A stretch of DNA of 59,302 bases from Lysobacterales bacterium (GTDB taxonomy: Bacteria > Pseudomonadota > Gammaproteobacteria > Xanthomonadales > Marinicellaceae): positions 1 through 59,302 of the forward strand of contig JALWKC010000089.1 in the NCBI GenBank assembly GCA_026996795.1, read 5' to 3'. How positions within the stretch are numbered: the stretch's first letter is position 1; the number at the start of each line of letters is the position of its first letter. Under the pieces are notes generated by a model, which was given only the letters and a program-made list of their open reading frames with translations, was not told the DNA's origin and searched no databases. Shown piece after piece: positions 2,840 through 48,705 of the stretch. The position numbers and the translations under genes were made by a program.

Positions 2840-4459
2840 TCAGGTCAGAACCACGTCAAACTGTTCCCGATTGTAGGCCTCTTCCGGCTGGAAGCGAATG
2901 CGTTTGCCCAGATTTTCCTCCAGCTCCTGCAGGCCCAGATGCTGTTCATCAATGATGTGGTCTATCAGTTCGGGGTTGGCCAGCACCAGCACATTGCCGG
3001 TCTTGAACTGGCGCACGGCCCGGGTGATTTCACGAAACAGTTCAAAAGCCAGGCTTTCGACAGTTTTAACATAACCCCGGCCAATGCATTCCGGGCACGG
3101 TTCGCACAGCAATTTTTGCAGGCATTCGGTGGTGCGTTTGCGCGTCATTTCCACCAGCCCAAGCTCGGTGATGCCGGAGATGCTGGTTTTGACCGGATCA
3201 TTGTCCAGGCAGTGCTGCAAGGTGTTCAGTACCTGCTGGCGATGGTTTTCGTCCTGCATGTCGATAAAATCGAGGATGATGATGCCACCGATATTGCGCA
3301 GGCGAATTTGCCGCGCGATGCAGTGTGCCGCTTCCAGGTTAGTGCGAAAAATGGTGTCTTCCAGGTTCCGGTGGCCCACAAAGCGGCCGGTATTGACATC
3401 AATGGTGGTCATGGCTTCGTTCTGTTCAATCACCAGATTACCACCGGATTTCAGGGGCACAAAACGCCGCAGGGCCTTGCTGATTTCTTCTTCGATATTG
3501 AAAAAGTCAAAAATCGGCCGGTCCCCTTCATACAGCACCAGCTCTCCGGCCCATTGAGGCACAAATTCAGTCAGAAAAGCCTGTATTTCCTTGTGGATCT
3601 CCGGGGAATCCACCCGCACCTGTCGCACTTCATGCGTCAGGTTGTCGCGCATGGCACGCAAGGGCAAGGACAAGCCCTGGTAGATGCGCTGCGGTGCGCA
3701 GGCGGAAGGGATGCTTTGACGCGCCTTCTCCCACAAGCGCACCAGAAAATCGAAATCCCGCTGCAGGCTGTGCCGGTCAACGCCTTCGGCATTGGTGCGG
3801 GCGATGATGCCGTATTGGGGAAAATCCGCACCCAGCTGGTCCAAAATGGCCTGCAGGCGTTCCCGCTCGGCTTCATCGGTGATGCGTGCTGAAAGTGCGC
3901 GCGTGCCAGGTTCCTGTGGCAACAGCACCAGGTAACGACTGGGGATGCTGATCTGACAGGTCACCCGCGCGCCCTTGCTGCCAATAGCGTCCTTGTAGAC
4001 CTGCACCAACAGTTGCTGGCCTTCATGCACGACACTGGCAATGTTGGGATAAGACGGAGCAGATCGCGAAGCAGAAGCAGAATCAACCCCGGGCGATTCA
4101 GGTGATGAGGTATCGGCAGGCCATGCGGAGTAACCCCTGGATCGGTTGTCTGAATTGTTAACCGGTTTGTTACTGGAGGCGCTACTGTGCGCAGCCTCTT
4201 TTTCACCGTTCGCCGACGAATCCGGTTTGTCCAGGCAGCAAATATCAGTGACGTGCATAAACGCCGAACGTTCCAGGCCAATATTGATGAAGGCCGCTTG
4301 CAGGCCGGGCACCACCCGTTCGATGCGACCCATGAAAATCTGTCCAACCATGGAGGTGCAACTATGCCGGTCGTGCATGACTTCCTGCAGCATGCCATTA
4401 TCCACCAGCGCCACGCGCGTTTCATTGGGGGTGGCATTGATGAGAATTTCTTCCGTCAT
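2840..4459 (-). CDS. rng: Ribonuclease G (RNase E/G family)
   Basis: 539-aa ORF. N-terminus MTEEILINATPNETRVALVDNGMLQEV plus an S1 domain and RNase E/G catalytic core motifs. Lies downstream of maf. AAGGAA Shine-Dalgarno 9 nt upstream of the ATG. Confidence 0.9.
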   Translation of the reverse strand: MTEEILINATPNETRVALVDNGMLQEVMHDRHSCTSMVGQIFMGRIERVVPGLQAAFINIGLERSAFMHVTDICCLDKPDSSANGEKEAAHSSASSNKPVNNSDNRSRGYSAWPADTSSPESPGVDSASASRSAPSYPNIASVVHEGQQLLVQVYKDAIGSKGARVTCQISIPSRYLVLLPQEPGTRALSARITDEAERERLQAILDQLGADFPQYGIIARTNAEGVDRHSLQRDFDFLVRLWEKARQSIPSACAPQRIYQGLSLPLRAMRDNLTHEVRQVRVDSPEIHKEIQAFLTEFVPQWAGELVLYEGDRPIFDFFNIEEEISKALRRFVPLKSGGNLVIEQNEAMTTIDVNTGRFVGHRNLEDTIFRTNLEAAHCIARQIRLRNIGGIIILDFIDMQDENHRQQVLNTLQHCLDNDPVKTSISGITELGLVEMTRKRTTECLQKLLCEPCPECIGRGYVKTVESLAFELFREITRAVRQFKTGNVLVLANPELIDHIIDEQHLGLQELEENLGKRIRFQPEEAYNREQFDVVLT

Positions 4460-4471: not shown

Positions 4472-4637
4472 TTAGGGAAGCTCTGATTGAATCTGGACGA
4501 AGCAGGTTATGCCGGAAATGTTTGAGAACAAGGCGAAGTTCGCAGCCAATAGCCGGCTAATCGCCAGGACTTCAACGCAGTTATCGGACATTTCAGGTAT
4601 GAGAAGCGAGTTCATGATTCGATCAGAGCTTCCTTGG
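4472..4637 (+). mobile_element. MITE-like repeat, subfamily A, copy 1 (166 bp including TTAG/TTGG flanks)
   Basis: Terminal inverted repeats GGAAGCTCTGATTGAATC / GATTCGATCAGAGCTTCC. Near-identical to 48515-48680 and to the reverse complement of 38554-38720. Sits in the maf-rng spacer. Confidence 0.85.
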
Positions 4638-4748: not shown

Positions 4749-5432
4749 TTAATTAAATGGTGTCACGCCCACGTTTTTCAGCAAGGCCAGGGTCTCGAAC
4801 AACGGCAGGCCCATAATGCCGGAAAAACTGCCGTCAATGCGCGGCACAAAAGCCGCAGCATAACCCTGAATGGCGTAAGCGCCGGCCTTGTCCAGCGGTT
4901 CGCCAGTGGCCACGTAGGCGCGGATTTCGGCCTCACTCAGTGGCCGGAAATGGACTTCGCTGGTGGACACCGCCTGCTGCCACCGGTGCTGATGCCAAAC
5001 GGCCACGGCGGTGGTGACCTGGTGTGTTCTGCCCGACAGGGCCTGCAACATGGCACAGGCCTCTTCTGTATCCCGCGGCTGGCCCAGCAAGGCGCCGTCC
5101 AGCACCACGATGGTGTCTGAACCCAGCACCGGTAAATCAGTCAGGGTTGGAATCAGCGACAAATTATCGGTATTTCCGGTGTTTTTGAGCGCATCGACGA
5201 TAGCAGCGGCCTTGCCCTTGGCCAGGCGCAGGGAATACGCCACCGGGTCTTCCTGTTTCAATGGGCTTTCATCAATATTGGCTGGTCGGCACGCAGGCTC
5301 GATGCCCACCTGTCGCAGCAACTGTGCCCGGCGGGGCGAGGCCGAAGCCAGAATTACCTGCGGGACTGTGGTTTTGCTGCCACTTTCTTTTGGCTTGTGG
5401 CCTTGTTCTGGCATGGAGTCAGGAGCGTTCAT
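4749..5432 (-). CDS. maf: Maf-family nucleoside triphosphate pyrophosphatase (YhdE type)
   Basis: 227-aa ORF with the ILASASPRRAQLL motif. Sits immediately upstream of rng as in the E. coli mre-maf-rng cluster. An alternative ATG at 5414 is possible. Confidence 0.85.
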   Translation of the reverse strand: MNAPDSMPEQGHKPKESGSKTTVPQVILASASPRRAQLLRQVGIEPACRPANIDESPLKQEDPVAYSLRLAKGKAAAIVDALKNTGNTDNLSLIPTLTDLPVLGSDTIVVLDGALLGQPRDTEEACAMLQALSGRTHQVTTAVAVWHQHRWQQAVSTSEVHFRPLSEAEIRAYVATGEPLDKAGAYAIQGYAAAFVPRIDGSFSGIMGLPLFETLALLKNVGVTPFN

Positions 5433-5435: not shown

Positions 5436-5458
5436 TTAGGGAGCCCCTCTGATTGAAG
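5436..5458 (+). repeat. Degenerate solo terminus of the 167-bp MITE family
   Basis: TTAGGGAGCCCCTCTGATTGAAG compared with consensus TTAGGGAAGCTCTGATTGAATC. Lies 3 nt upstream of the maf ATG. Confidence 0.45.
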
Positions 5459-6584: not shown

Positions 6585-8645
6585 ATGACCACCAACCCTT
6601 TCCGCATGAACCAGCGCTTCAGTCTCTGCCTCCTGAACAAACCGGCCTGGTGCCGGCTGAATGTGGCCTGGGCCTTTTTTCTGGTTTACCTGACCCTGAG
6701 CGTCATCACACGCACCGTACTCACGGTGCTGAGCTGGTCGTCACTGGATGCCGGCTGGCAGGTCATTCCAGTGATTTTCCTGCGCGGACTGCTGTTTGAT
6801 CTGGGCTTTTACAGCTATTTCCTGATTCCCTTTGTGCTGTACCTGTGGTTGCTGCCGGAACGGCTCTGGCGCAGTCGCCTCAACAAGATCCTCGTGCACG
6901 GGGTTTACCTGCTGTCCATTTACGGGTTTCTATTTGTGGCCGTGGCGGAATACTTTTTCTGGGACGAATTCACGGTTCGCTTCAATTTCATCTCGGTCGA
7001 TTACCTGGTTTACACCCACGAAGTCACCAGCAATATCCAGCAATCCTACCCGGTGGGGCCCATTCTGGCTGGTCTGGGGTTGTTGGCGCTGGGCATTTAC
7101 TGGCTAACCCGGTCTTACCTGAATCAGGCACTTGATTGCGCTTCACATTTTCGCCAGCGCACCGGCCCCGTGTTGCTTTTGCTGTTGCTGCCGGTGGTCA
7201 GTTATTTTGCCCTGAACCAGCAATGGCGTGAGTACAGCAAAAACACCTTCCAGAACGAACTGGCCAGCAATGGGCCTTACCAGTTCTTTGCCGCGTTCCG
7301 AAACAACGTGCTGGATTACGACAAATTCTATCCGGTGCAGGATGACGCCAAGGTGACGCGCAACCTTTACCGCCTGGTACATAAACCGCTGCCGGAAAAT
7401 CCCGAGGCCATCAAACCCTATGACATCGGGCGACACATTGATAACCCAGGCGAGGAACAGCGGCACAATGTGATTTTGGTCACCATCGAGTCCTTCAATG
7501 CCGACTTCCTGAAAAAATTTGCCGACCAGCGCGGGTACCCGGACACAGTCAAGCCCGACCTGATCCGGCAGTACGGTGGCGAAGCCGGGATGACGCCGTT
7601 TCTGGACTCGCTTATTGACCAGAGCCTGTTTTTCTCACGCATGTATGCCACCGGCACCCGAACCGTGCGTGGGCTGGAAGCCATTACCTTGTCCATACCG
7701 CCCACGCCTGGCCGTTCCATCGTCAAGCGCATTGGGCACGAGTCCGGTATGCATTCGCTGGGACAGGTGTTTCGCGACAAGGGTTATGACGTGCAATTCA
7801 TTTATGGAGGCCGCGGCTATTTTGACAACATGAACGCGTTTTTTTCCGGCAACGGTTACGGCATCATCGACCAGGACAACGCCGCAGACTTCAACCATAA
7901 AATCGCCTTTGAAAATGCCTGGGGCATGAGCGATGGCGACCTGTATGACATTACCCTGGCCCAGGCCGATCGCGCCCATGCCGAAGGCAAGCCCTTTTTC
8001 TACCAGTTGATGACCACCTCCAACCACCGGCCATTCACTTTTCCGGAAGGCACCATCGACTGGCCCCAGCACAACCGCGAATCGGTCATTGCCTACACCA
8101 GTTACGCCATTGGTGAGTTTTTGAGAACAGCCAGCGAAAAGCCCTGGTTTGACAACACGGTTTTTGTTTTTATCGCCGATCACACTTCGCGCGCTGCCGG
8201 GAAGGCCAGCCTGCAGGTTCAGCGGTATCACATTCCCATGTGGATCTACGCGCCCAAGCTGGTCAAACCCCGCGTGGTTGATACCCTGTTGAGCCAGATC
8301 GACGTGGCCCCCACCCTGCTGGCCCTGCTCAACATGGACTACGATTCGTGGTTTTTTGGTTTGAATGCCAGTGATGTGTCACCGGATGAGGAACGGGCGC
8401 TGATCGGTAATTATCAGAAACTGGGCTTGTACAAGGATGGCGTGCTGACTTATCTGGCGCCGGTCAAGCAGGTGCTGCAACGGCAGGAAGCCACCGGCCA
8501 GGCAGTCAACAATCCGACACTGGTGGATGAGGCCATCGCCTATTATCAGGGGGCTGACCGGGTTTACCGCTGCGGGCTAAACCTGCTCAAGCCGTCGAAA
8601 GCCGCGCAACAATGCCTGCATGGCGAAATCAAAAAAGCGCGCTAG
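6585..8645 (+). CDS. LTA-synthase/sulfatase-family membrane protein (phosphoglycerol or phosphoethanolamine transferase-like)
   Basis: Trimmed to ATG 6585 (MTTNPFRMNQRFSL...). The N-terminus has several hydrophobic segments. The C-terminal sulfatase fold shows the motifs VILVTIESFNADF, TSNHRPF, ADHTSRA. Confidence 0.8.
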   Translation: MTTNPFRMNQRFSLCLLNKPAWCRLNVAWAFFLVYLTLSVITRTVLTVLSWSSLDAGWQVIPVIFLRGLLFDLGFYSYFLIPFVLYLWLLPERLWRSRLNKILVHGVYLLSIYGFLFVAVAEYFFWDEFTVRFNFISVDYLVYTHEVTSNIQQSYPVGPILAGLGLLALGIYWLTRSYLNQALDCASHFRQRTGPVLLLLLLPVVSYFALNQQWREYSKNTFQNELASNGPYQFFAAFRNNVLDYDKFYPVQDDAKVTRNLYRLVHKPLPENPEAIKPYDIGRHIDNPGEEQRHNVILVTIESFNADFLKKFADQRGYPDTVKPDLIRQYGGEAGMTPFLDSLIDQSLFFSRMYATGTRTVRGLEAITLSIPPTPGRSIVKRIGHESGMHSLGQVFRDKGYDVQFIYGGRGYFDNMNAFFSGNGYGIIDQDNAADFNHKIAFENAWGMSDGDLYDITLAQADRAHAEGKPFFYQLMTTSNHRPFTFPEGTIDWPQHNRESVIAYTSYAIGEFLRTASEKPWFDNTVFVFIADHTSRAAGKASLQVQRYHIPMWIYAPKLVKPRVVDTLLSQIDVAPTLLALLNMDYDSWFFGLNASDVSPDEERALIGNYQKLGLYKDGVLTYLAPVKQVLQRQEATGQAVNNPTLVDEAIAYYQGADRVYRCGLNLLKPSKAAQQCLHGEIKKAR

Positions 8646-8654
8646 GGAAGCTCT
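8642..8654 (+). repeat. 13-bp orphan terminus of the 167-bp MITE family
   Basis: CTAGGGAAGCTCT. It contains the TAG stop of the sulfatase-family gene and touches the rsmA stop codon. Confidence 0.4.
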
Positions 8655-10500: not shown

Positions 10501-11726
10501 GCTTCGCGCTCTTCGGCAATCTTGCGCTGCAGCAGGGCTTCGCGAGCTTGCTGGCGCTTGAACTCTTCGGTGACATCACTTTTGCGTTTGCCATTGAGCT
10601 TGACAATATGCCAGCCGGCCTGAGTCTGGAAGGGCTTGGAATATTCCCCTTCTTTCAATGACTCCAACGCCTTGGCAAAACGCTCGCCATACTGACGCGG
10701 CTGGAACCAGCCCATGTCGCCGCCCAGTGGCGCGGAAGCATGATCGTCTGAATATTTTTCCGCCAACTTGGCAAAGTCCTCGCCTTGCTGCAGTTTTTCA
10801 TAGACTTCATTGATGGTGCGCATGGCGTCTTCAGGCGTAACCAGCTCGGAAACCCGGGCCATGATGTGCTGGGCCTTGACCTCGTCGATCATTTTCTGCT
10901 CACTGTCGCGCTTGCCTTCCAGTTTGATGATGTGAAAACCGCTGGGACTGCGTACCGGATGCGTGATTTCACCCACTTTCATGGCACTGAGCTGATCAGT
11001 GAACAGTTCTGGCAACTGGTTAACCGGTCGCCAGCCCAGATCGCCCCCTTCCAGGGCTTTCTGGCCAGCGGAAACCTGCGTCGCAAGACTGGCAAAATCC
11101 GCCCCCCCGGCCAGCTGTTGATAAACCTCCTCGGCTTTTTGACGGGCTTTTTCCACGGCTTCGTTGGAGGCATTTTGAGGCACTGCAATCAGAATATGGC
11201 GCAGTTTGACTTCACCCTGGTTCAGGTGGTTGGACGCCAGAAACAGGTCCACATCTTCTTCAGACACTTTGGCCTGGCTCTCGGCCCAGCCACGGCTGAC
11301 GCGGTCGGCCAGCATTTCCTTGCGAATGTCCTCGCGGAAATCGGCAAAACGCTGCCCTTCATTTTCAATGGCTGCCCGCATTTGCGCGACACTCAAGCCA
11401 TTCTGGGCCGCAATGCGCTCAATGGCCGCGTTCAGCTCGGCATCAGACACACGCACGCCCGCCTGTTGTGCCTTCTGCACTTGCAGGTTTTGCAAAATCA
11501 GCCGTTCCAGCACCTGCCGTTCCAGCACCGAACGGGGCGGCAACTGCACCCCACGGGCATTGAACTGTTTGATGATGTTGGCCACGGTGCGATCCAGGTC
11601 GCTGCGAAGAATCACATCATCGTCAACCACGGCCACAATCTCGTCCAGCAGTTGCTCTTCGGCAAAACTGGCATTTGACAGCCACAAACCACTGGCTAGG
11701 GCCAATAACACGATCAGTTTTTTCAT
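10452..11726 (-). CDS. surA: Periplasmic chaperone / peptidyl-prolyl isomerase SurA
   Basis: 424 aa with a signal peptide (MKKLIVLLALASGLWLSNASFA) and two parvulin domains. Downstream of lptD. Confidence 0.92.
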   Translation of the reverse strand: MKKLIVLLALASGLWLSNASFAEEQLLDEIVAVVDDDVILRSDLDRTVANIIKQFNARGVQLPPRSVLERQVLERLILQNLQVQKAQQAGVRVSDAELNAAIERIAAQNGLSVAQMRAAIENEGQRFADFREDIRKEMLADRVSRGWAESQAKVSEEDVDLFLASNHLNQGEVKLRHILIAVPQNASNEAVEKARQKAEEVYQQLAGGADFASLATQVSAGQKALEGGDLGWRPVNQLPELFTDQLSAMKVGEITHPVRSPSGFHIIKLEGKRDSEQKMIDEVKAQHIMARVSELVTPEDAMRTINEVYEKLQQGEDFAKLAEKYSDDHASAPLGGDMGWFQPRQYGERFAKALESLKEGEYSKPFQTQAGWHIVKLNGKRKSDVTEEFKRQQAREALLQRKIAEEREAWLRQIRGEAFVDIRL

Positions 11727-11729
11727 GAA

Positions 11730-13973
11730 TCAATATTCCTCGCTATAGCCCGGAATGGACTGTTTCAACAAGCGCCGCGGGTTGCGGCCCAATGAGCCCA
11801 GTCCATTGAACTGGATTTCTGCGTAGATGCCGTTTTTGGCGTCTCCCGCTTCGTTATAGACAAACCGACGCGCCACCAGACGAAAAGCCCAGCAACAGCT
11901 GCGGTGTTCAATGCCTGCCAGTGCCTCAATGATTGTGTTGGCATCCAGCGAGTAGTTCCAGCGGGCAATCAGGCGATTCTGGCGGCTGACGGGGTAAACC
12001 ACCGAGCTGTCCACCTGTTCAATTTTACCCTGCCGGTAGCGGTAAGCAAAATTGAGCAGCGAACCGGCGGTGCCACGCCGTTGCAATCGCACCAGCGCCC
12101 GTTCGGTTTCGCTGGTTTCCGGATCCCAGTGCAAGCTTACTGTGCCATTCCAGGGGCTATCCGGCCGGTAATTGAACTCGGCAATCAGAGGTGACACCGA
12201 GCGGTTCTGGGGTTGGCCATTTAGCTGCACGCGCTGCTGGTCAAAATAGACAATCTGACCCATGGTGGCGTTCCATCTTTCCCGCCCCACGGCGTCAAAA
12301 GCACGATGGGTCAGCGCCACGGACACCTGATTAGCGTCCATTTGCCGGTCGGCGCCGGAAAAACGGTTGGTCTGGAACAGCAGGGCCGAACCAAAGGTCA
12401 GATCGTGGGTGTCAAACAACGGGATGTCCTCTTGCTTGCGGTACGGCGCAAACACGTAAAACAGCCGTGGCTCCAGGGTTTTGAAGCTGCCATCAGGCAG
12501 ATTTTTTTCCAGGCGTAGTCCGCTGTCGAGGGAAAAAATGGGCAGGGAACGGCCCGGTCTGTCGTTGCCTTCGGCGTGCTTGAGGTCATATTCGGTCAGG
12601 CGGTAGTCCAGCCGTGGCGCCAGCCAGCCCCAGGCTTTCTGCCAGCGTTTTTCCACGTAAGGCCGAAAATCCAGTCGCCAACCGGTCACCGAATCCTCGC
12701 GATAGAAGTTGGCCGCCTGCGCTTTCAGGCCGTAGTGCAAACCCTGCAACAGGCGATGGTTTTGCCACCAGTAATTGAGCACCGGCAACCGCTGGTAAGG
12801 TTTCTGGTCTGGCCGTATGGTGCTGGTGAGTAGCTGGTAGTCATCGATCTGGGCGCGAAACAACCAGTGCTCACCTGTGCCTTTCAGCTGCAGGTAACTG
12901 TGCAGGTAAGGCCGTGACGCGGTGTAGACGTTGTCGCTGAAGTCCTCGAAATAACGGGGGTCGGAAACCCGCTGGTACCTGCCATTGAACCACCAGTCAT
13001 CGTTGATGCTTTTACGGTGGGTCAGATTGAGAAAATAGCGGTCAATATCACGCACTTTATCATTGGGCAGGTAATCCACTTCCAGCGTACCGCGATAGCT
13101 TTCGCCCAGATAGCGAAATCCGCTTTCCAGCATGGCGCCATTCTGCTGAATGTAACGCGGCGTCAGAGCCAGGTCGCGATTAGGTGCCAAGTTGAAATAA
13201 TAAGGGATTGAAATGTCCCAGCCGGTCACCGAGGAATAGCCCACGCCGGGCACCAGAAAGCCGCTACGGCGCTGATCGTTCAGCGGCAACCGGGCCCAGG
13301 GCAGATAGACGATGGGGGTGTTCTTGAAATGCAAGGTCAGGTGGTGAAAGGTGCCTTCCTGTTTTTCCAGATCAAGCTCGGCACGGTGGGCGCGTATTTC
13401 CCAACTTTTGTGATCGGATGGGCAGGTGGTGTAACTAATGTTTTCCAGCACACTGGCCTGCTCGCTTTGCTGCAACTGTTCGGCGCTGCCATTAACATTG
13501 GAATTCAAAATGTGAAACGTGATGTCGGTGAGGTTCGCTTTGTCCTGCTGCAGGTAAAGCGTGGCCCGGCGCGCCTTGATGGTCTGTTTGTCATCGCTGT
13601 AACGCAACGGCGTCTGTATTTCCGCCTCACCAGTGGAGCGATTCAGTTGCAGGGACTGGGCGGCGATAATTTTCTTCCCCTGCTGAACGCACACGTCACC
13701 GGTCAATTTCAGCGTCTGATCATCCACCCGCTTGATCCTGAACGCATCCAGGTGCAATTTGCCGTCTGCCTGTGGCACTTTACATTCAATGGCCGGCGGT
13801 TCCGGTTGCACCGCACACTCATCGGCTATGGGCGATTCCGTTTTGCCCTTGGCCAAAGTGGTCGCAGGGAGCACAAGCAGACAGAAGATGCCGGCCAAGC
13901 CAGTAAGTGTCCCCAGCCGTCGTTGCTGAAGATGTCGTGGTGTTTCGGGCGTGGCGAACACAAAATGCGTCAA
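11730..13973 (-). CDS. lptD: LPS-assembly outer-membrane protein LptD
   Basis: 747 aa, OstA N-terminal domain plus a large beta-barrel. Conserved lptD-surA order. The start codon shown is TTG, so the exact start is uncertain. Confidence 0.9.
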   Translation of the reverse strand: MTHFVFATPETPRHLQQRRLGTLTGLAGIFCLLVLPATTLAKGKTESPIADECAVQPEPPAIECKVPQADGKLHLDAFRIKRVDDQTLKLTGDVCVQQGKKIIAAQSLQLNRSTGEAEIQTPLRYSDDKQTIKARRATLYLQQDKANLTDITFHILNSNVNGSAEQLQQSEQASVLENISYTTCPSDHKSWEIRAHRAELDLEKQEGTFHHLTLHFKNTPIVYLPWARLPLNDQRRSGFLVPGVGYSSVTGWDISIPYYFNLAPNRDLALTPRYIQQNGAMLESGFRYLGESYRGTLEVDYLPNDKVRDIDRYFLNLTHRKSINDDWWFNGRYQRVSDPRYFEDFSDNVYTASRPYLHSYLQLKGTGEHWLFRAQIDDYQLLTSTIRPDQKPYQRLPVLNYWWQNHRLLQGLHYGLKAQAANFYREDSVTGWRLDFRPYVEKRWQKAWGWLAPRLDYRLTEYDLKHAEGNDRPGRSLPIFSLDSGLRLEKNLPDGSFKTLEPRLFYVFAPYRKQEDIPLFDTHDLTFGSALLFQTNRFSGADRQMDANQVSVALTHRAFDAVGRERWNATMGQIVYFDQQRVQLNGQPQNRSVSPLIAEFNYRPDSPWNGTVSLHWDPETSETERALVRLQRRGTAGSLLNFAYRYRQGKIEQVDSSVVYPVSRQNRLIARWNYSLDANTIIEALAGIEHRSCCWAFRLVARRFVYNEAGDAKNGIYAEIQFNGLGSLGRNPRRLLKQSIPGYSEEY

Positions 13974-14038
13974 GAGATATCCTGTGGCTGTACTGACGGA
14001 AAAGTCACGGCCAGACCGGGCATTGGGCCGGGGCCGTG

Positions 14039-14067
14039 TTTACAAAGTTTGCGGCGTATTTTAATAT
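14039..14067 (+). promoter_or_regulatory. Putative sigma70 promoter (TTTACA-N17-TAATAT) for the yegP-like gene
   Basis: -35 TTTACA at 14039-14044, a 17-nt spacer, and -10 TAATAT at 14062-14067. About 87 nt upstream of ATG 14154, which has an AGGAGG Shine-Dalgarno. Confidence 0.35.
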
Positions 14068-14153
14068 GGCCGTTGGCGAATGTCTTTGACTATCTCGTTG
14101 AATGCCAATTCGCCGGGTGAATAAAAAACCAAACTGAATCCAGGAGGGAGATC

Positions 14154-14489
14154 ATGGCAGCGAAATTTGTGGTGACAACCGGCGCAGACGGCAAACGCTA
14201 TTTTGTGCTCAAGGCCGGCAATGGCGAAGTCATTTTGCAAAGTCAGGGTTACAAAACCGAGTCCGGTTGCATCAATGGCATCGAATCCGTGCGCAACAAC
14301 GCGCCCAACCCCCAGCGCTTTGAGTGCCGGGAAGCCAAGGATGGGCGAACCTACTTTGTACTCAAGGCCAGTAATGGCCAGGAAATTGGCCGCAGCCAGA
14401 TGTACAAAACCGATGCCGGCTGCAAAAACGGCCTGGAATCCGTGGCCAGGAACGCCGCCGAAGCGCGGGTGGAAATCGTCGAGGACTGA
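14154..14489 (+). CDS. YegP-family protein (tandem DUF1508 repeats)
   Basis: 111 aa made of two internal repeats (YFVLKAGNGEVILQSQGYKTESGCINGIESV / YFVLKASNGQEIGRSQMYKTDAGCKNGLESV). Strong Shine-Dalgarno. Confidence 0.85.
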   Translation: MAAKFVVTTGADGKRYFVLKAGNGEVILQSQGYKTESGCINGIESVRNNAPNPQRFECREAKDGRTYFVLKASNGQEIGRSQMYKTDAGCKNGLESVARNAAEARVEIVED

Positions 14490-14515
14490 GTTTCCTCAAG
14501 ACGGAATCTCTTGCC

Positions 14516-14682
14516 CTAAGGAAGCTCTGATTGAATCTGGCGCGGACAGATTGGAACGTAAATTGTTCAGATCAAGGCGCAAACCACACGCAATAGCGAG
14601 CTATTGTGAAGATTTGCAACGCAGAAATGGACGATTTTATGCCGCAAGATACCGTGTCACGATTCAATCAGCGGCTCCCTAA
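14516..14682 (+). mobile_element. MITE-like repeat, subfamily B, copy 1 (167 bp, CTAA/CTAA flanks)
   Basis: Same termini as subfamily A but diverged arms. Matches 28711-28878 and the reverse complement of 26336-26504. Confidence 0.85.
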
Positions 14683-14768
14683 ACAGCACACCAAACACCG
14701 TCCAGCTGGCGCAAGTCCGTCTTGCGCCTTTTTGATGCCTGATCCTTTCTCTTTTCATTGCCCCTGCC

Positions 14769-15539
14769 ATGACCAATTCCACCAACTGGTTTGACAACGA
14801 CGACTTCTGGAAAACCTTTTACCCCACCATGTTTGACTCGCACAGCTTTGCTCAGGCGCGCCAGGAATGCCTGCCATTGCTGGCACTGGCTGGCAAGGAG
14901 TCACCGCGCGTGCTGGATCTGGCCTGTGGTCCCGGGCGCCATGCCGTGCCACTGGCGGCGCTGGGGCTGGAAGTCACCGGCGTCGATCTGAGCCAGACCC
15001 TGTTACAAAAAGCCACCGAGCTGGCCAGGCAAACCGGCGTGACGGTGGAGTGGCGCCAGGAAGACATGCGCGATCACCACCGGCCCGGGCATTACGACCT
15101 GATTCTTAACCTGTTTTCTTCCTTTGGCTATTTCGACCAGTGGCAGGACAACCAGAAAGTCCTGAACCGGGCCCACGAAAACCTGACCGCAGGCGGCGTC
15201 CTGATTCTTGAGGGGCGTGGCAAAGAGCGGGTTATTCGCGAATTACAGCCCGTGCATGCCGAGGAATTTGACAACGAGCACCTGCCCGGCTGCGTGCTGT
15301 ATCAGCGGCCTTACCTGAGCGATGACCTGACGCGGCTGCATAATGAATGGACGCTGGTGTGCCCCGATGGCGCGCACCGGCATGAATACAGCCACTTCAT
15401 CTACACCGCGCAGGAACTGCGGATGATGGCAGCGCAGGCCGGTTTTGAGTCCGTTACGATTTATGGCGGTTTGAGCGGCGAGCCTTACGACCTGGATGCC
15501 GAACGGCTGGTGCTTGTGGCACGCAAAAACGGCGCGTGA
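14769..15539 (+). CDS. Class I SAM-dependent methyltransferase
   Basis: 256 aa. SAM-binding motif VLDLACGPGRH followed by an acidic loop (VTGVDLS). Confidence 0.8.
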   Translation: MTNSTNWFDNDDFWKTFYPTMFDSHSFAQARQECLPLLALAGKESPRVLDLACGPGRHAVPLAALGLEVTGVDLSQTLLQKATELARQTGVTVEWRQEDMRDHHRPGHYDLILNLFSSFGYFDQWQDNQKVLNRAHENLTAGGVLILEGRGKERVIRELQPVHAEEFDNEHLPGCVLYQRPYLSDDLTRLHNEWTLVCPDGAHRHEYSHFIYTAQELRMMAAQAGFESVTIYGGLSGEPYDLDAERLVLVARKNGA

Positions 15540-15607
15540 GTGCATCAGACCGGCACGGGAAGCGGTCAATAGCAAAGACCAAAAGGGTTGTGAAAGGACG
15601 GAAGGAA

Positions 15608-15683
<76 letters not shown>

Positions 15684-15863
15684 ACACTTTTCTAGTACTT
15701 GAGCAGTCGAAGAACAGCCAGAGGAAAGGCCGCTTGATGAATAGGGCAGCAATGAAACACTGTTCAATCGCCGATCAACTCAAGGGCGTGCAGTATAGCC
15801 AATCGCCCTATTTCCATCAAGCCCTTTTGTGCGGATTTTTCACCGATTGACCGGCTGCCTGCG

Positions 15864-16014
15864 ATATTAACCTGGCATCGATATAGATGATGCTCAGGGC
15901 TTCAAGCCTGCCTCGGAACAAGGCATCGCTTGCAGCCAATGGTTGTTCCATTGGCAAAAGCGATAACACCGGGCCGGGGCAGGCTTGAAGCCCAACTCAT
16001 TGATATAAAAAGGC
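15864..16014 (+). repeat. Type-2 structured repeat, copy A (one TTAACCTGGCATC terminus, nested stems, no second terminus)
   Basis: ATATTAACCTGGCATCGATATAGATGATGCTCAG matches the left end of 19979-20165. Contains a 15-bp stem GGCTTCAAGCCTGCC/GGCAGGCTTGAAGCC. The segment AAGCCCAACTCATTGATATAAAAAGGC matches the reverse complement of 20114-20140. Confidence 0.65.
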
Positions 16015-16032
16015 CCGCCATCAGTGCGAGCC
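16005..16032 (-). terminator. Rho-independent terminator after the secreted-protein gene
   Basis: Minus strand reads GGCTCGC-ACTGATG-GCGGGCC followed by TTTTTAT. It lies 27 nt past the stop at 16059 and its T-run merges into the type-2 repeat. Confidence 0.5.
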
Positions 16033-16058
16033 TTTCAGAGGTTTTATCAGCGCTTTAT

Positions 16059-17327
16059 TCAGCGCCGGGCAAAGCCCTGACCCGACGGTCGCGGTTCTTG
16101 GGGCAAAGCCAGGACCGTGATGCCAGCGGCCACCGATTGCACCGGTGCCAGACGGCTTTGATCCCGCAATTGCACCTGACGAATTTCAAACGGTGCCTTG
16201 AGGCCGGATTTGGCCAGCAAACCCGCGTCTATGGGTAAGCTCAAGGTCTGAGCACCCTTCGGCAACCAGGCGGCAGACTGGGCCACGGCAAAGGGCACTA
16301 CCTTGTTGTTGGCGTCACGGCCGAATAACACGCCCCGCACTTCGAAGCGGCCTTCCTGAGCCACGGTGACACCGATATTCACGCGCGCGGTTCCACTTTT
16401 ATCACGCGTGACATCCAGCTGGCCATTAAAGCCGGCCACCGGCAAGTTGACGGCAAAGGCCGTTTGTGCATCGCGCATGACCTTGTCGTTGGCGGCAAAA
16501 ACGTGGGCAGTCCACAGGCCATTGGCCAGGCCTGTCAGCTCTGAAACCGGCAGCGAAGCCTGAAAGCGGCCATCCGGCTGGCGGGTAAATTTCAGTTCGC
16601 CGGCCACGCGGCCATCGGGCAGGCTGACGTATCCCTGCCATTGGGCGTTCTGGGTGCTTTGGCCATCGCGCAAGGCGGCCACCACCTGAATCGGCTCATT
16701 GGCATTGAAGGTGGCCTTGCTGGTGCCCAATTCCAGTACCTGGCTGGATTGTGGCTCAAACACGTGCACCACCACCGGCACCTTCTCATCCAGGCCAGTC
16801 ACTTTCAATACCGCTTTTCCAGCCGGCACATTCGCCTTGAACGCCACCGTATTCTGTGGGAAGGGCACGCCGGTTTTTTGCACACTTTGGGCGTCGGCAA
16901 AAACATCCAACGGAATGACCTCGCCTGCCGCTTGCAATTGCACCTGACCGGCATTGAGACTCACTGCCTTGCCGGTGGACAAGGGACTGATGCGGATCAC
17001 CGTTTCGCCGCCAGTCACTGGCAGTTTCAGACCCGCAGCCAGCTTGTCACCGGTACTGTCCAGCCAGTATTGGCGGCTTTTTTCGGTGTAAACAGCAGGT
17101 GAAAAGTCCAATGCCTGATCCGCGTCAATGGCATAGCTGAACACCACCGGATCACGGCTGGTGTTGATCAGGGGGGCGTCCACCTGGGTGGATTTTTGCA
17201 ACAGACTGTCGTCCATTGTCACCGGTACATTCCATTTGGCCTGAGGCCCGGCAGCGGCAGCGATAGCGGAAATGGCAAAGCCAAGGGCAAGGGCCACCGT
17301 GTGTTTGGGTGTGAAATTGATTTTCAT
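16059..17327 (-). CDS. Secreted protein of unknown function (signal peptide; size and composition reminiscent of DUF4785-type proteins)
   Basis: 422 aa. N-terminal signal MKINFTPKHTVALALGFAISAIAAAAG. Beta-rich and Ig-like in appearance. The family assignment is from memory only. Confidence 0.6.
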   Translation of the reverse strand: MKINFTPKHTVALALGFAISAIAAAAGPQAKWNVPVTMDDSLLQKSTQVDAPLINTSRDPVVFSYAIDADQALDFSPAVYTEKSRQYWLDSTGDKLAAGLKLPVTGGETVIRISPLSTGKAVSLNAGQVQLQAAGEVIPLDVFADAQSVQKTGVPFPQNTVAFKANVPAGKAVLKVTGLDEKVPVVVHVFEPQSSQVLELGTSKATFNANEPIQVVAALRDGQSTQNAQWQGYVSLPDGRVAGELKFTRQPDGRFQASLPVSELTGLANGLWTAHVFAANDKVMRDAQTAFAVNLPVAGFNGQLDVTRDKSGTARVNIGVTVAQEGRFEVRGVLFGRDANNKVVPFAVAQSAAWLPKGAQTLSLPIDAGLLAKSGLKAPFEIRQVQLRDQSRLAPVQSVAAGITVLALPQEPRPSGQGFARR

Positions 17328-17339
17328 GTCAGCAGCTCC

Positions 17340-18194
17340 TTAAATGTCGTTGCGCAGAATAACATCGAGGCCAAAGCATTGGCGACGGCTCTGGTTATGG
17401 CTCAATGGCTCACCACCGGCCATGCGGCTTTTATCCCGGAACCAGGTGGTGCCTGCCCCTTCCTGGGAGGAGCACTCAAGGAAACCATCGGAGCAACTGC
17501 TCAACCAGGCCTGGGTGACTTCCAGCCCCACATTCAGGGCATAACCGCCGCAATAGCTGTCGCCATCCCACACGGCCGTTTCCACATCGGTACCGACCAC
17601 GTTCCAGAAGCCTTTGGGCAACGCCGGCCGGCCGGAAGTGCCATACAGGTAGTTGGCGTTGTAGTAAGCCATCCATGAAGTCTGTTGCATGCGCACGGCA
17701 TCGGACTTGTAGCCCAGCAGCCAGCCCAGGGAACTTTCAAACACATTACCCTGCATGACCGCATTGGCCAGCGGCGTGCCCTTGGAAGAAGGCGCGAGCG
17801 CATTGACCCAACGAATTTTGTTGATGATATTGGGGTAACGGCTGTCCCAGGTGGGGTTGGACATGATCCAGCGCATGACATTGCCGCCATTGGAGTGCGT
17901 AATCACCACCAGGTCGGTAATGTTCTTGTTGTTGATAAACGTGGTCAGCTGACCGGCCAGACAACCGGCGGCCTGGGAATCCCACATGTATTTTTCAAAA
18001 TTGCAGTTAATGACCACGTAATTGCTCTGATTGGGCAAACCCTGGCGAATGGAATTGACCATGCCCCATTGCCAGTAATCAGCGGCGGCATTGGTTTGGT
18101 GGCCCGTGCCATGCACCAGCGCAACGCCAGTGGCAGCATGGCCCACGGGAACCAGAAAAAAGGCGGCGATAAACGCCAGGCGAGAAAGTTTCAT
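17340..18194 (-). CDS. Secreted lipase/esterase-like alpha/beta hydrolase
   Basis: Signal peptide MKLSRLAFIAAFFLVPVGHA and nucleophile-elbow-like motif VITHSNGG. I prefer ATG 18194 (GGGAGG Shine-Dalgarno 8 nt upstream) to the TTG at 18197 used by the track. Confidence 0.7.
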   Translation of the reverse strand: MKLSRLAFIAAFFLVPVGHAATGVALVHGTGHQTNAAADYWQWGMVNSIRQGLPNQSNYVVINCNFEKYMWDSQAAGCLAGQLTTFINNKNITDLVVITHSNGGNVMRWIMSNPTWDSRYPNIINKIRWVNALAPSSKGTPLANAVMQGNVFESSLGWLLGYKSDAVRMQQTSWMAYYNANYLYGTSGRPALPKGFWNVVGTDVETAVWDGDSYCGGYALNVGLEVTQAWLSSCSDGFLECSSQEGAGTTWFRDKSRMAGGEPLSHNQSRRQCFGLDVILRNDI

Positions 18195-18516
18195 CAAATA
18201 GACCTCCCTATTTTGATCGTGATGGTAAGAAAATGCGCAGTGTGAGTTATGGAGTTATTGTTATTATTCGTATTTGGCGCATGGATTATGCGTCAGCCGG
18301 GCGTGGGATTCCGTGACGCAGGCCACACTTTACACCAGCTCCACCCCTTTTTTCAAACGTTGGTTTGGAGCACATGCGCTATCTTTCAAAATTCGTATGC
18401 ACGGTGGCTTTTTGAAAGGAAAAAACCACAGGAATTCAGGCAGCAGTCTTCGACTAAATTGTGCAGGAAGCCGGTGTGGCATGTGATGCCCCGAAGTCCA
18501 TCGGACAGGGCTGGCA

Positions 18517-18547
18517 CGAGTTCATGATTCGATCAGAGCTTCCCTAG
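18517..18547 (+). repeat. Truncated right end (~30 bp) of a subfamily-A MITE
   Basis: CGAGTTCATGATTCGATCAGAGCTTCCCTAG matches the last 30 nt of copies 1 and 6. Its CTAG supplies the TAG stop of the oxygenase-like gene. Confidence 0.7.
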
Positions 18548-19318: not shown

Positions 19319-19358
19319 TTATTAACTTGGCATCAATATAGGCGATGCCAGGTTAATA
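19319..19358 (+). repeat. Type-2 repeat, copy B (40-bp minimal palindrome of the two termini)
   Basis: TTATTAACTTGGCATCAATATAGGCGATGCCAGGTTAATA. The TAA stop of the phosphatase gene (19353-19355) lies inside it. Confidence 0.7.
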
Positions 19359-26336: not shown

Positions 26337-26504
26337 TAGGGAAGCTCTGATTGAATCGTGACACGGCATCTTATGGCGTAAAATCGTCCATTTCTGCGTT
26401 GCAACCCTTCACAATAGCCTGGCTATTGCGTGCGGTTTGCGCCTTGAACTGAACAATTTTACACGACAATCTGCTCGCGCCAGATTCGATCAGAGCTTCC
26501 TTAG
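26336..26504 (-). mobile_element. MITE-like repeat, subfamily B, copy 2 (inverted; TTAG/TTAG flanks)
   Basis: Its reverse complement aligns end to end with 14516-14682 and 28711-28878. It occupies almost the whole spacer between the PP-loop gene and the Mur-ligase gene. Confidence 0.85.
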
Positions 26505-28710: not shown

Positions 28711-28878
28711 CTAGGGAAGCTCTGATTGAATCTGGCGCAAGCAGATTGTCGTGAAAAATTGTTCAGTTCAAGGCGTAAGCCGCACGCAATAGCAAGCTAT
28801 TGTGAAGGTTTGCAACACAGAAATGGACGATTTTACGCCGCGAGATGCCTGGTCACGATTCGATCAGAGTTTCCCTAG
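28711..28878 (+). mobile_element. MITE-like repeat, subfamily B, copy 3 (168 bp, perfect CTAG/CTAG flanks)
   Basis: CTAG-GGAAGCTCTGATTGAATC ... GATTCGATCAGAGTTTCC-CTAG. Lies between the glycine-zipper gene and selD. Confidence 0.88.
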
Positions 28879-34338: not shown

Positions 34339-34373
34339 AGGCAATCACACGCACAACCCAGCTAACCCTTTTG

Positions 34374-35468: not shown

Positions 35469-35478
35469 TTTGAGTCTC

Positions 35479-36513: not shown

Positions 36514-38573
36514 GTTCAGTACTGAAGCGATCAAGGCACTGGCGACGAACGACTGGCAAAAACCCCGCCGGTGGCACCGGTACGGCACTCACCGCACCCC
36601 AGATGTTGTGGCTGCTGCTGGGCATTGCCCTGGCCATTCTGCCCCACTGGAGCAACCTGCCGACGTGGTTCTGGCCAGTGGCTGCACTGGTGTTGCTGTG
36701 GCGATTGCACTCACTGGAAAAACCGTTGCCGCGCTGGCAGGTGCTGCTGGTAACCAGCGCGGTGTTGCTGGCCATAGGCGTGTCCGCCGGTCGCGGCCTG
36801 AACCGGGAAATTGCCATCACGATTCTGGCCAGCATGGCGGTCCTCAAAACCCTGGAAACCCAAAGGCGCCGGGATGCATGGGTGTTGATCACACTGGGCT
36901 TTTTTCTGGTCATGACGCGTTTCTTTTATGGCCAGGACATGGTGTTGCTGCCTTGGCTGCTTCTCACGGTCGCCACCTTGACCTACGCGCTGTTGTGCCT
37001 CAACCAATGCCATGAGCCCTATCATGCGTCAAGGGCCTGGTTCGCCCCCAAAGTCCTGTATCAGGCCCTGCGTTACCTGCTTTTGGCCGTGCCAGTGGCC
37101 GCTGCCCTGTTTCTTTTTTTTCCACGCCTCGCCTCGCCGCTTTGGGGCTCACCGGAAATGTTTGGCCAGGGCAAAACCGGTCTGGGTGACAGCATGAGCC
37201 CCGGCTCCATTGCCGAGTTGTTTATGGATGACAGTCCGGCCATGCGAGTTAATTTTGCGGGCAAACGCCCTGATGCGGCGCAACTCTACTGGCGCGGTCC
37301 AGTGCTTGAGTCTTTTGATGGCACCACTTGGCACGCCATCGAATACTCCTTTGCCCGGCGTCCACCACCGCTGGTGGACCCACAGGCACAGGTAGCCTAC
37401 GATATTGAACTGGAACCCCACGGCCAGCATTTCCTGCCCGTACTGGACTATCCCTACCGCGTGCCCGAAAACGCCTTTTTGATGCCCGACCTGCACGTTC
37501 AACAAGCCACGCGCGTGACCCAACTCAAACATTATCGCGCTGTTTCACAAACCGTCACGCCCTTGCCGGATACCCTCCCGGCCCGACTGGCCCAGCGGCT
37601 GGTGATGCTGCCACGCCACGCCAACCCGAAAACCCGCGCCCTGATCAAACGCTGGCAGACACAAACGCCCGATAGCCTGGCGCTTGTTGAGCGAATTCTC
37701 ACCTGGTTCAATCAGGAAAACTTCATCTACACATTTACCCCACCACCGCTTAAAGGCGACACGGTGGATCAGTTTTTGTTTGAAACCCAGTCGGGTTTTT
37801 GCGAACACTACGCTTCAGCATTCACCGTCATGATGCGCATGGCCGGAGTGCCTGCCCGGGTGGTGACCGGCTATCAGGGTGGGCTGGACAACGGCAACTA
37901 CTGGCTGGTGCGGCAATCCGACGCCCACGCCTGGAGCGAAATCTGGCTCAAAGGGCGGGGCTGGCTGCGGGTGGACCCGACCGCGGCGGTAGCGCCTTCG
38001 CGTGTGCGTTCCGGTGCCCGCAGCTGGATGGATTCCGGTCGCACCTGGTACGACTACGGCTGGTTGCATCGTCTGCAACTGTCCCTGGACAGCTGGCGCT
38101 ATCGCTGGAATCGCTGGTTGCGGGATTACAATCAGGAGACTCAGCGCAAGCTATTGGAATCCCTTGGGGTGGATGACGACCAGCCCGCCGGCATGGCCTG
38201 GCTGATTGCCGGCGCCATTCTCACCAGTGGCCTGCTGGGCCTGTTCGCGCTGGGCTGGTCTCGACAGAAACGGCGGGTGCCGGATGCGGAAAAAATCTTT
38301 CGCCAGCTGGAAAAACAACTCAGCCGCCTGGGGCTGCCACGCGCGGCCCACGAAGGCCCGGCGACGTATCTGGAACGGGTCGCCCGACACTGGCCAAAGG
38401 CAGCAGCCAATGCCCGCCGTTTCGCGCGCGAATACGAAAGGTTGCGTTACGCGCCCGATGCGCACACGCTGACGGCCGCAGACAAGCCGCTGCAACGCCT
38501 GCAACACGCCGCTAAGAACCTGATAGCGCTTGTCCGCGGGACTTCAATGCCCGTTAAGGGAAACCCTGATTGA
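36510..38573 (+). CDS. tgpA: Transglutaminase-like membrane protein TgpA (DUF3488 + transglutaminase core + DUF4129-like tail)
   Basis: 687 aa with a polytopic N-terminus. Cys-His-Asp triad context GFCEHYA / DAHAWSE / RVDPT. The last 5 codons and the stop lie inside a MITE. Confidence 0.85.
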   Translation: MSSVLKRSRHWRRTTGKNPAGGTGTALTAPQMLWLLLGIALAILPHWSNLPTWFWPVAALVLLWRLHSLEKPLPRWQVLLVTSAVLLAIGVSAGRGLNREIAITILASMAVLKTLETQRRRDAWVLITLGFFLVMTRFFYGQDMVLLPWLLLTVATLTYALLCLNQCHEPYHASRAWFAPKVLYQALRYLLLAVPVAAALFLFFPRLASPLWGSPEMFGQGKTGLGDSMSPGSIAELFMDDSPAMRVNFAGKRPDAAQLYWRGPVLESFDGTTWHAIEYSFARRPPPLVDPQAQVAYDIELEPHGQHFLPVLDYPYRVPENAFLMPDLHVQQATRVTQLKHYRAVSQTVTPLPDTLPARLAQRLVMLPRHANPKTRALIKRWQTQTPDSLALVERILTWFNQENFIYTFTPPPLKGDTVDQFLFETQSGFCEHYASAFTVMMRMAGVPARVVTGYQGGLDNGNYWLVRQSDAHAWSEIWLKGRGWLRVDPTAAVAPSRVRSGARSWMDSGRTWYDYGWLHRLQLSLDSWRYRWNRWLRDYNQETQRKLLESLGVDDDQPAGMAWLIAGAILTSGLLGLFALGWSRQKRRVPDAEKIFRQLEKQLSRLGLPRAAHEGPATYLERVARHWPKAAANARRFAREYERLRYAPDAHTLTAADKPLQRLQHAAKNLIALVRGTSMPVKGNPD

Positions 38574-38720
38574 ATCGTGAACTCGCTTCTCACACCTGAA
38601 ATGTCCGATAACTGCGTTAAAGCCCTGACCAATAGCCAGCTATTGGCTGCGAACTTCGCCTTGTTCTCGAACATTTCCGACATAACCTGCTTCGTCCAGA
38701 TTCAATCAGAGCTCCCCTAA
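38554..38720 (-). mobile_element. MITE-like repeat, subfamily A, copy 2 (inverted; TTAA/CTAA flanks)
   Basis: Its reverse complement aligns with 4472-4637 and 48515-48680. Confidence 0.85.
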
Positions 38721-38764
38721 GCGAAAACCGGGCAACTGAGCCATCGAACGGACTGTCTGCCTGG

Positions 38765-40144: not shown

Positions 40145-40351
40145 GACTTTACCCCCCATGGTTAATCGTTCAAAAAACACCTGAACCAGCCAGTACCAAC
40201 TATTTTCGACAGATCCCGGCTGCTTACGGCAGGCAAAATAATAGCACTGAAGGCTGAACGCACGCCAACTGCCAAGCACGAAAAAATCGGCAATCGGTCA
40301 CAGGAAGATATGGAATAAACAGAAAACGGATGGAAAAACAAAAACGGCGCC

Positions 40352-41615: not shown

Positions 41616-41735
41616 CAAAACGATTCCGGGCAAAAAATGTCAGTATATTCCTGTTGGCAGGGCCTGACGATGGGCAAACACTGGTAGTAACGTAGGAATT
41701 CTGCCACCAATGTCACATTGTTGAACCGCTGTCGG

Positions 41736-48518: not shown

Positions 48519-48680
48519 GGAAACTCTGATTGAATCTGGACGAAGCAGGTTATGCCGGAAATGTTCGAGAACAAGGTGGAGTCCTTGCCAATAGCGAGCT
48601 ATTGGCAAGGACTTCAACGCAGTTATCGGACATTTCAGGTGTGAGAAGCGAGTTCACGATTCGATCAGAGGTTCCCCTAA
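48515..48680 (+). mobile_element. MITE-like repeat, subfamily A, copy 3 (166 bp; TTAA/CTAA flanks)
   Basis: Fills most of the prpC-prpD spacer. Its central stem GTCCTTGCCAATAGC/GCTATTGGCAAGGAC is a perfect 15 bp. Confidence 0.88.
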
Positions 48681-48705
48681 CCGCAACCCATACAGGAGCC
48701 AACCC

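Follow-up and report, generated by a model that had tools for sequence, protein, structure and literature searches.

The duplication motif of the insertion sequence (IS) IS5 of Escherichia coli is 5′-YTAR-3′ (PMC5009759). [quoted passage not shown] Here we describe a repeat family in a 59,302-nucleotide stretch of Lysobacterales DNA (contig JALWKC010000089.1, assembly GCA_026996795.1), hereafter the window, in which 4-bp YTAR duplications and a whole-length hairpin occur together. An earlier note on this DNA, made from the sequence alone, had described these repeats as a MITE family with IS5-type hallmarks, represented by six full copies and three fragments. Our analysis indicates that the elements very probably constitute a MITE family mobilized by an IS5-group DDE transposase that acts in trans on their terminal repeats. 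As such, the family is an ordinary kind of selfish DNA, a MITE with IS5-group ends; beyond the ordinary is only a conserved core, common to several families and two end types.

Copies, Termini and Subfamilies

The six full copies of the window measure 157–161 bp each without their 4-bp flanks (Table 1) and together occupy about 1.6% of its length, with roughly one copy in every 10 kb. Their termini are 18-bp inverted repeats, GGAAGCTCTGATTGAATC and GATTCRATCAGAGCTTCC. The terminal 18-mer GGAAGCTCTGATTGAATC, with up to three mismatches allowed, matches the window 13 times, where dinucleotide-preserving shuffles give an expectation of 0.04; these matches resolve into six inverted pairs 157–161 bp apart and one lone end at 18526–18543. 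The copy at 4472–4637, for instance, reads GGAAGCTCTGATTGAATC…GATTCGATCAGAGCTTCC, with TTAG on its left and TTGG on its right.

All six copies can be aligned end to end. Pairwise comparison separates them into two subfamilies, A (copies starting at 4476, 38559 and 48519) and B (14520, 26340 and 28715), with 85–91% identity inside a subfamily and about 70% between A and B; either subfamily is found in both orientations. Judged by the better-folding strand, the copies are oriented, in order, +, +, -, +, -, +, a distinction that holds because the interior of the element is asymmetric. Open reading frames (ORFs) overlapping the copies are only run-throughs from adjoining sequence. The copies encode nothing and are therefore derivatives of ISs, not ISs themselves.

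These results bear out what the earlier note had said of the six copies, their shared termini, their two orientations and their lack of coding capacity. The flanking tetranucleotides it listed for them are likewise correct, and its coordinates for the copies include these flanks. Its three fragments fared unequally: 18517–18543 is a true remnant and 5436–5458 a plausible degenerate end, while 8642–8654 is too short to be told from chance.

Target Duplication, Distribution and Mobility

A profile built from the six copies located 102 places in the window and the fetched genome loci, including 83 full copies with readable flanks. In these 83 copies, which come from the window and a Lysobacterales metagenome-assembled genome (MAG) about 92% identical to it, the flanking four bases read Y-T-A-R, and one YTAR is often common to two adjacent copies. 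Perfect 4-bp flank pairs were found in 39 of the 83, against a mean of 9.75 and a maximum of 21 upon random re-pairing (1000 shuffles). YTAR stands on both sides in 41 copies, and the tetranucleotide is identical in 35 of them, against 25% expected. The flanks therefore represent duplications, beyond a preference for certain sites. Alignment of many flanks, by which the earlier note thought its proposed YTAR target duplication might fail, came out in favour of duplication.

An exact scan for the 18-mer across one genome per species (596 Gb) gave at least 87 stretches. Among the matches listed, about half come from a single Lysobacterales MAG, JALUIX01, and the others mainly from Gammaproteobacteria (Rhodanobacteraceae, Pseudohongiella, Halothiobacillus, Sedimenticola, Oceanococcus, Chromatiales, Thiotrichales and Methylococcales); the few lone matches in unrelated taxa are about as many as chance would give an 18-mer in so much sequence. 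Over 11151–18509 and 33767–52487 the window runs collinear with contigs of JALUIX01 at 90–94% identity and therefore derives from a close relative of this MAG. In 41 JALUIX01 blocks (305 kb), picked for holding the exact 18-mer, we found at least 73 full copies and at least 91 places in all. Further genomic copies, whose absence would have spoken against a mobile family, thus exist in the related MAG, and the extrapolation of the earlier note to hundreds of copies per genome is plausible.

Orthologous positions of the window and the MAG differ in occupancy. Three window copies are common to both, namely 14520, 38559 (L068 3067–3224, 95.6% identity) and 48519 (L082 3749–3906). Two sites are empty in the window and filled in the MAG (Table 1), and one further MAG copy lies at a position where the window carries a different repeat. 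At 18517–18543 the window has suffered a deletion of about 163 bp, and the MAG ortholog keeps the full copy. The MAG copy orthologous to 14520 (in L010) is a B copy with an A copy nested inside it, and such nesting is seen again at MAG loci L024 and L060 in the same relative orientation. The filled and empty orthologous sites and the nested copies show that the elements are or were mobile.

The nested A-in-B composites span L010 3535–3855, L024 1804–2126 and L060 1202–1521. Insertion of A into B at the same internal position (after …GTTCAGTT CAAG) was seen at three or four loci; the recurrence reflects either an insertion hot spot or a copied composite of about 320 bp. We also observed that at window position 46326–46362 the MAG contains an extra segment of about 4.9 kb (L023 1–2946 plus L082 6055–8000). 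It holds two MITE copies, L023 1581–1742 and L082 6075–6232, one of which is about 20 bp from the segment boundary. Purifying selection on orthologous copies was also considered; the three orthologous pairs diverge by 4.4%, 4.4% and 16% and are too few and too mixed for interpretation.

Autonomous Relatives

Full-length ISs with the same ends encode an IS5-group DDE transposase and make the same 4-bp duplications, which agrees with the IS5-type signature that the earlier note had recognized. An IS5-family IS with matching inverted repeats, which the note had proposed to look for, does occur in other Gammaproteobacteria, for example at locus L080 of a Thiotrichales MAG (Table 1). This IS holds a single ORF of 317 aa, and its product matches NCBIfam transpos_IS5_4 at 317.6 bits (cut-off 140) as well as Pfam DDE_Tnp_1 and DUF772. 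In the MAG BWSM_30, several contig ends break inside the same kind of IS, directly after the identical terminus.

A metagenome scan with the L080 protein yielded 80 loci. Twelve are complete ISs of 1132–1191 bp with GGAAnCTCTGA… ends, most of them bordered by identical 4-bp duplications (ttag/ttag, ttaa/ttaa or ctag/ctag). L089 is the closest among these metagenome ISs, with 77% protein identity and ends GGAACCTCTGATTGAATC. The best transposase relatives in a plasmid collection are only about 50–55% identical to that of L080. In Rhodanobacter denitrificans, an IS annotated with an ‘IS5 family transposase’ has ends GGATGCTCTGATT and a CTAA/CTAA duplication. We also asked whether the T/C difference at terminus position 13 distinguishes left from right ends in step with the strand of the transposase; the left end has T in the BWSM_30 IS and C in L080, and the idea was dropped.

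Within the window, tBLASTN and Pfam scans of about 50 ORFs gave no transposase, as the earlier note had stated. Neither an integrase nor an HUH protein appeared in the Pfam scans of these ORFs, which returned chromosomal housekeeping families only (among them lptD-surA-pdxA-ksgA, maf-rng, Mur ligase, PBP1, prpB-prpC-prpD and dUTPase). A DNA search of the plasmid database found no match to subfamily A or B. In viral contigs the terminus had 3 matches, all without YTAR flanks, and the core pattern described below had 120, none with the two-stem fold; both results are consistent with chance. A literature search for the 18-mer and a 12-mer retrieved nothing relevant and no published element with this sequence.

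Taken together with the target duplications, the shared ends suggest how the elements may spread. An IS5-group transposase supplied in trans would bind both terminal repeats, excise or copy the element and insert it at YTAR by a 4-bp staggered cut. Stop codons would be natural and tolerated targets, because YTAR contains TAA or TAG, and the duplication would leave the stop codon intact. An origin of the interior by internal deletion of an IS would be conceivable.

Whole-Element Hairpin

All copies fold end to end as one hairpin. The folding is strand-asymmetric: the favoured strand folds at -72 to -88 kcal/mol, far better than the other at -44 to -64 kcal/mol. The consensus structure of an 80-copy alignment comprises 53 pairs, 27 of which stay paired through changes on both sides. 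Paired cells amount to 97.3%, compared with 85.6% in shuffles and 27–47% when partners are slid by 1–3 columns.

The A and B consensus sequences contain 6 and 7 G·U pairs, respectively, at 10 distinct positions (three common to A and B, three A-specific and four B-specific), all on the same strand and with no A·C. Other consensus mismatches pair on neither strand, barring, at the most, one C·A located in an internal loop. Among variants present in at least two copies, G·U outnumbers A·C (24 to 7); singletons, split 23 to 19, show no such preference. The constraint seems to act on propagating lineages and not on inserted copies, since only shared variants favour G·U.

Every sampled MITE family with this terminus is a long hairpin. 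Families of 270–287 bp with the same terminus fold about equally on both strands. Strand asymmetry as a general trait of MITEs with this terminus was therefore rejected, the 270–287-bp families showing none that is consistent.

The 48519 copy (48572–48622) differs from its MAG ortholog (L082 3802–3853) by a clustered change, with TCCTTG in place of TTCGCAG. In the TCCTTG variant the arm is perfectly complementary, the inner stem forms a perfect palindrome and the 3-nt bulge is removed. The same variant was observed at an unrelated MAG locus, L084 7260–7310. The change looks like the product of a template switch in a quasi-palindrome, or else like conversion with another copy as donor. As it bears the signature of a template switch, part of the apparent compensation may be mutational.

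Conserved 53-nt Core

The central part of the element, about 53 nt, consists of CAAGGC, stem 1 (7 bp), a 3-nt bulge, stem 2 (7–8 bp) with its loop, a 2-nt bulge, the second strand of stem 1 and AACGCAG. This core is found in subfamilies A and B and in divergent copies from Sedimenticola, Chromatiales and Oceanococcus MAGs, as well as in a 270–284-bp family (JAAFAL01) and a 287-bp family (Rhodanobacteraceae). Measured from one end, it starts some 54 nt in (at 54 in the 270–287-bp families and at 53–55 in A and B). The core also lies within a second repeat family with different ends, TTAACCTGRYATCAATATAG (window 15865–16014 and 19979–20162).

Among 13 representatives, 94.1% of cells in the core are paired, whereas shuffles reach 60.4%. 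Each of the 15 pairs in the two core stems has changed on both sides, single positions showing as many as five pair types, and the core flanks are invariant or nearly so. A covariance model of the core alignment gave 105 matches in 671 kb; full copies score on one strand only, and there are no matches outside these repeat families. Deviation from the A and B consensus is 0.048–0.066 per column, alike in termini, core flanks, core stems and outer arms. The core is conserved between families and inserted copies decay evenly, from which we infer a cis-acting role in propagation of the element, like that of the termini. The core would act in this way for the element and not for the host at the insertion sites.

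The elements have no match in Rfam at gathering scores or at E-values up to 10, the best being generic hairpins far below threshold; in the window, only a tRNA reaches the gathering score. Two known motifs were compared with the core by inspection and rejected. Integron attC sites carry 5′-RYYYAAC…GTTRRRY-3′ pairing at the hairpin base, and the CAAGGC and AACGCAG flanks are arranged differently and are not complementary. A kink-turn found no support in the core alignment.

Since the core is also present in a repeat family with different ends, it is not specific to this transposase. It may even be, though this is less likely than not, a strand-specific structured RNA or single-stranded DNA module, cis-acting for MITE spread and independent of the transposase type, because it rides both on MITEs with IS5-type ends and on the TTAACCTGRYATCAATATAG-ended family. 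Such a module might serve as a site where a host factor binds or processes it, or might by its folding draw the ends of a very short element close to each other.

Alternative Explanations

The long hairpin with strong covariation and a conserved core could instead point to a non-mobile, structured RNA or regulatory element kept for the host, such as an mRNA stabiliser, a processing site or a terminator. Copies inside operons (prpC-prpD and maf-rng) are likely transcribed, and bcr1 offers the precedent of a MITE-like repeat with RNA-level compensatory changes (PMC3184786). Such a role is nevertheless very improbable here, and the target duplications together with the insertion polymorphism largely refute it, nested copies pointing the same way. 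Element orientation relative to genes, assigned with a simple longest-ORF gene model, is unbiased (41 sense and 33 antisense at gene 3′ ends, 28 and 22 at 5′ ends), which argues against an orientation-dependent host role at the mRNA level. Further evidence against a host element comes from the four copies scanned (4476, 26340 and 28715 within the scanned ranges), where no promoter-like or intrinsic-terminator-like motif was found, from the Rfam result and from the even decay across all parts of the element. The energy difference between the strands and the 10 consensus wobble positions, all on one strand with no A·C mismatch, could also be expected of palindromes of the repetitive extragenic palindromic (REP) or REPIN type, moved as single-stranded hairpins by a REP-associated tyrosine transposase (RAYT) or an IS200/IS605-type HUH transposase, with no DDE enzyme involved. 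The covarying stems with invariant single-stranded flanks are also reminiscent of the manner in which HUH enzymes read hairpins. REP sequences and REPINs, however, have no target duplication, of which there is a clear 4-bp one here, and the termini are identical to those of ISs encoding IS5-group DDE transposases. The duplication and the DDE-type ends thus set the element apart from REPs and REPINs; with no Y1/HUH protein among the scanned window ORFs and no consistent strand asymmetry in the 270–287-bp families with the same terminus, this origin is scarcely credible.

The preferred explanation, a MITE family mobilized by an IS5-group transposase, still has several observations to its disadvantage. 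Neither the window nor the 41 fetched MAG blocks (305 kb) yielded a cognate IS, and the interior beyond the 18-bp terminus resembles none of the sampled ISs; a parent IS with MITE-like subterminal sequence was sought and not found among the 80 metagenome IS loci or the genome loci. No two copies are identical, each departing from its subfamily consensus by 2.5–6% (median about 5%), so there is no sign of very recent activity. Copies present only in the MAG are as diverged from the consensus (4.3–5.6%) as shared ones. The comparison of orthologous sites that the earlier note had advised did reveal filled/empty polymorphism, but neither of the two empty window sites displays a clean YTAR, and some of the polymorphisms may be losses rather than gains. 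The occurrence of the core in a repeat family with different ends weighs on the same side. A narrower challenge accepts the MITE and denies the hairpin a function: the fold would be a fold-back of one IS end, with template switching between the arms mimicking compensation. The change from TTCGCAG to TCCTTG between the MAG ortholog and the 48519 copy, which made one arm the perfect complement of the other, is what such a process would leave, and the long hairpins of all sampled families with this terminus suit it too. Template switching should, however, erase asymmetric loops, and the CAAGGC, AACGCAG and bulge positions stay invariant across at least five families and in MAGs assigned to several groups of Gammaproteobacteria, whereas all stem pairs have changed. 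Together with the bias of shared variants, but not of singletons, towards one-strand wobble pairs (24 versus 7 and 23 versus 19), this makes a functionless hairpin unlikely, though it deserves serious consideration.

Genomic Context of the Copies

Table 1. Coordinates of the MITE copies, remnants, cores, empty sites and related elements. Positions refer to the window unless a locus is named.
Feature	Position	Strand	Flanks or sequence	Neighbourhood or remarks
MITE copy, subfamily A, 158 bp	4476..4633	+	flanks TTAG (4472-4475), TTGG (4634-4637)	between maf (4749-5432, -) and rng/RNase G (2840-4459, -); 16 nt upstream of rng start codon
MITE copy, subfamily B, 159 bp	14520..14678	+	duplication CTAA/CTAA	downstream of DUF1508 gene (14154-14489)
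MITE copy, subfamily B, 161 bp	26340..26500	-	duplication TTAG/TTAG (on + strand)	between two minus-strand genes, one Mur-ligase-like
MITE copy, subfamily B, 160 bp	28715..28874	+	duplication CTAG/CTAG	divergent intergenic region, upstream of AIR-synthase-like (purM-like) gene (28992-30014)
MITE copy, subfamily A, 158 bp	38559..38716	-	flanks TTAA/CTAA	TgpA-like ORF 36510-38573 stops at TGA 15 nt inside terminal repeat
MITE copy, subfamily A, 157 bp	48519..48675	+	flanks TTAA/CTAA	between prpC (citrate-synthase family, 47391-48518) and prpD (48706-50154)
Right-end remnant, 27 bp	18517..18543	-		full subfamily B copy at MAG ortholog L010 7793-7953
Degenerate lone terminus	5440..5458	+	GGAGCCCCTCTGATTGAAG after TTAG	plausible remnant
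Possible remnant	8646..8654	+	GGAAGCTCT after CTAG	too short to tell from chance
Core, example	48572..48622	+	CAAGGC-S1-bulge-S2-loop-S2'-AA-S1'-AACGCAG	
Core	4529..4580	+		
Core	14573..14624	+		
Core	26394..26446	-		
Core	28769..28820	+		
Core	38612..38663	-		
Site empty in window	14117..14121			filled in MAG (L010 2966-3122)
Site empty in window	40231..40236			filled in MAG (L068 1375-1535)
Autonomous IS, 1160 bp	L080 1502-2661 (Thiotrichales MAG)		TTAG, GGAAGCTCTGATCGAATC…GATTCAATCAGAGCTTCC, CTAA	
27-bp palindromes	L033 2764-2790, L046 878-904, L056 1026-1052, L076 258-284, L083 920-946, L015 2237-2263			

Some copies touch the ends of genes. At the 48519 copy, the final three bases of the left flank TTAA are also the stop codon TAA of prpC. 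Among the 74 gene 3′ ends that adjoin a copy, 13 fall exactly at the element boundary, with the TAR of the duplicated YTAR serving as stop codon, and 10 lie 11–22 nt inside the terminal repeat, which carries TGA in two frames, at one of its TGA triplets. A target duplication or terminal repeat thus provides the stop codon in about a third of the adjacent genes. Stop codons stand at the element edges because the target is YTAR, hence their position is no evidence of function.

Other Repeats and Features

A second palindromic repeat family, with ends ATTAACCTGRYATCAATATAG, occurs in the window in three forms: a half copy at 15865–16014, a 39-bp mini-palindrome at 19320–19358 and a copy of about 184 bp at 19979–20162. 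Outside the window it was seen at L060 7582–7868 (about 287 bp, two opposite hairpins) and at L041 3545–3583. Its flanks are compatible with a TA duplication. A tRNA-Thr gene (anticodon TGT) lies at 15608–15683 on the minus strand of the window, and within about 200–400 bp of it there is a MITE insertion in the MAG and a second-family repeat in the window.

In other Gammaproteobacteria we observed 27-bp palindromes, GGAAGCTCTGATTGAATCAGAGCTTCC, that correspond to two overlapping termini (Table 1). They were considered as independent ‘nano-MITEs’ and rejected as such: in several loci of the MAG OZ251218 one shared sequence, TGCGGTACAGGG…, follows, and for this reason we take them to be the head of a further repeat family.

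A perfect 42-bp palindrome, GGAAATGAAAAAAGGGCCAATATTGGCCCTTTTTTCATTTCC, is located between convergent genes at 50173–50214, and the window has about 76 bp more than its MAG ortholog at 50207–50283. Another palindrome, imperfect and 36 bp long, separates convergent genes at 45157–45192. Both look like ordinary bidirectional terminators. The DUF1508 gene contains a 113-bp direct repeat (14190–14302 and 14344–14455, 73% identity) that corresponds to its two DUF1508 domains.

Significance

Interest in the MITE family lies chiefly in annotation and in what it tells about the genomes of one uncultured Lysobacterales lineage. The element sits inside operons and supplies or abuts stop codons, and it marks sites of difference between close relatives, a possible source of strain markers. 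The pattern of the core points to a cis-acting propagation feature besides the terminal repeats. If confirmed, the core would offer an experimentally testable handle on the amplification of some bacterial MITEs to high copy number and on their frequent whole-length hairpins.

Comparison with Known Systems

The element has the properties by which prokaryotic MITEs are recognized: a length of 157–161 bp, no coding sequence, terminal inverted repeats and a 4-bp duplication, along with dispersed copies sharing an interior, termini shared with ISs (those of other genomes) and evidence of movement. The features of the IS5 group are the 4-bp YTAR duplication and, in the full-length relatives only, a DDE transposase of about 320 aa between the same ends. 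The traits of REPs and REPINs, namely no duplication, a 5′ motif of the GTAG type and a RAYT gene, are not those of the element.

REPINs, the RAYT-mobilised doublets of REP sequences, resemble the element in their long imperfect hairpins, high intergenic copy number and strand-specific folding as single strands. They differ from it in having neither target duplications nor DDE-type terminal repeats, both of which the element possesses.

The likeness to IS5 of E. coli and the IS5 group lies in termini that begin with GGAAG and in the 4-bp YTAR duplication (PMC5009759). Full-length relatives with identical termini encode a single DDE transposase of about 317 aa belonging to transpos_IS5_4. However, the window elements are 158 bp long and non-coding, with an interior unrelated to the sampled ISs, and the nearest transposases of the plasmid database are distant from that of L080 (only about 50–55% identity). 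The terminus of E. coli IS5 itself departs from that of the element after the first 5 bases.

Among the hairpin MITEs (Correia/NEMIS, ERIC, RUP, Nezha, Chunjie, QMITE and bcr1), the element shares small size, terminal inverted repeats, a target duplication and many intergenic copies, and also a stable stem-loop and insertion into operons without disruption (PMC3184786, PMC10969869). The described families have other termini and targets, Chunjie for example making 9-bp duplications, whereas here a 53-nt core with invariant loops is common to several MITE families and to a family with different ends.

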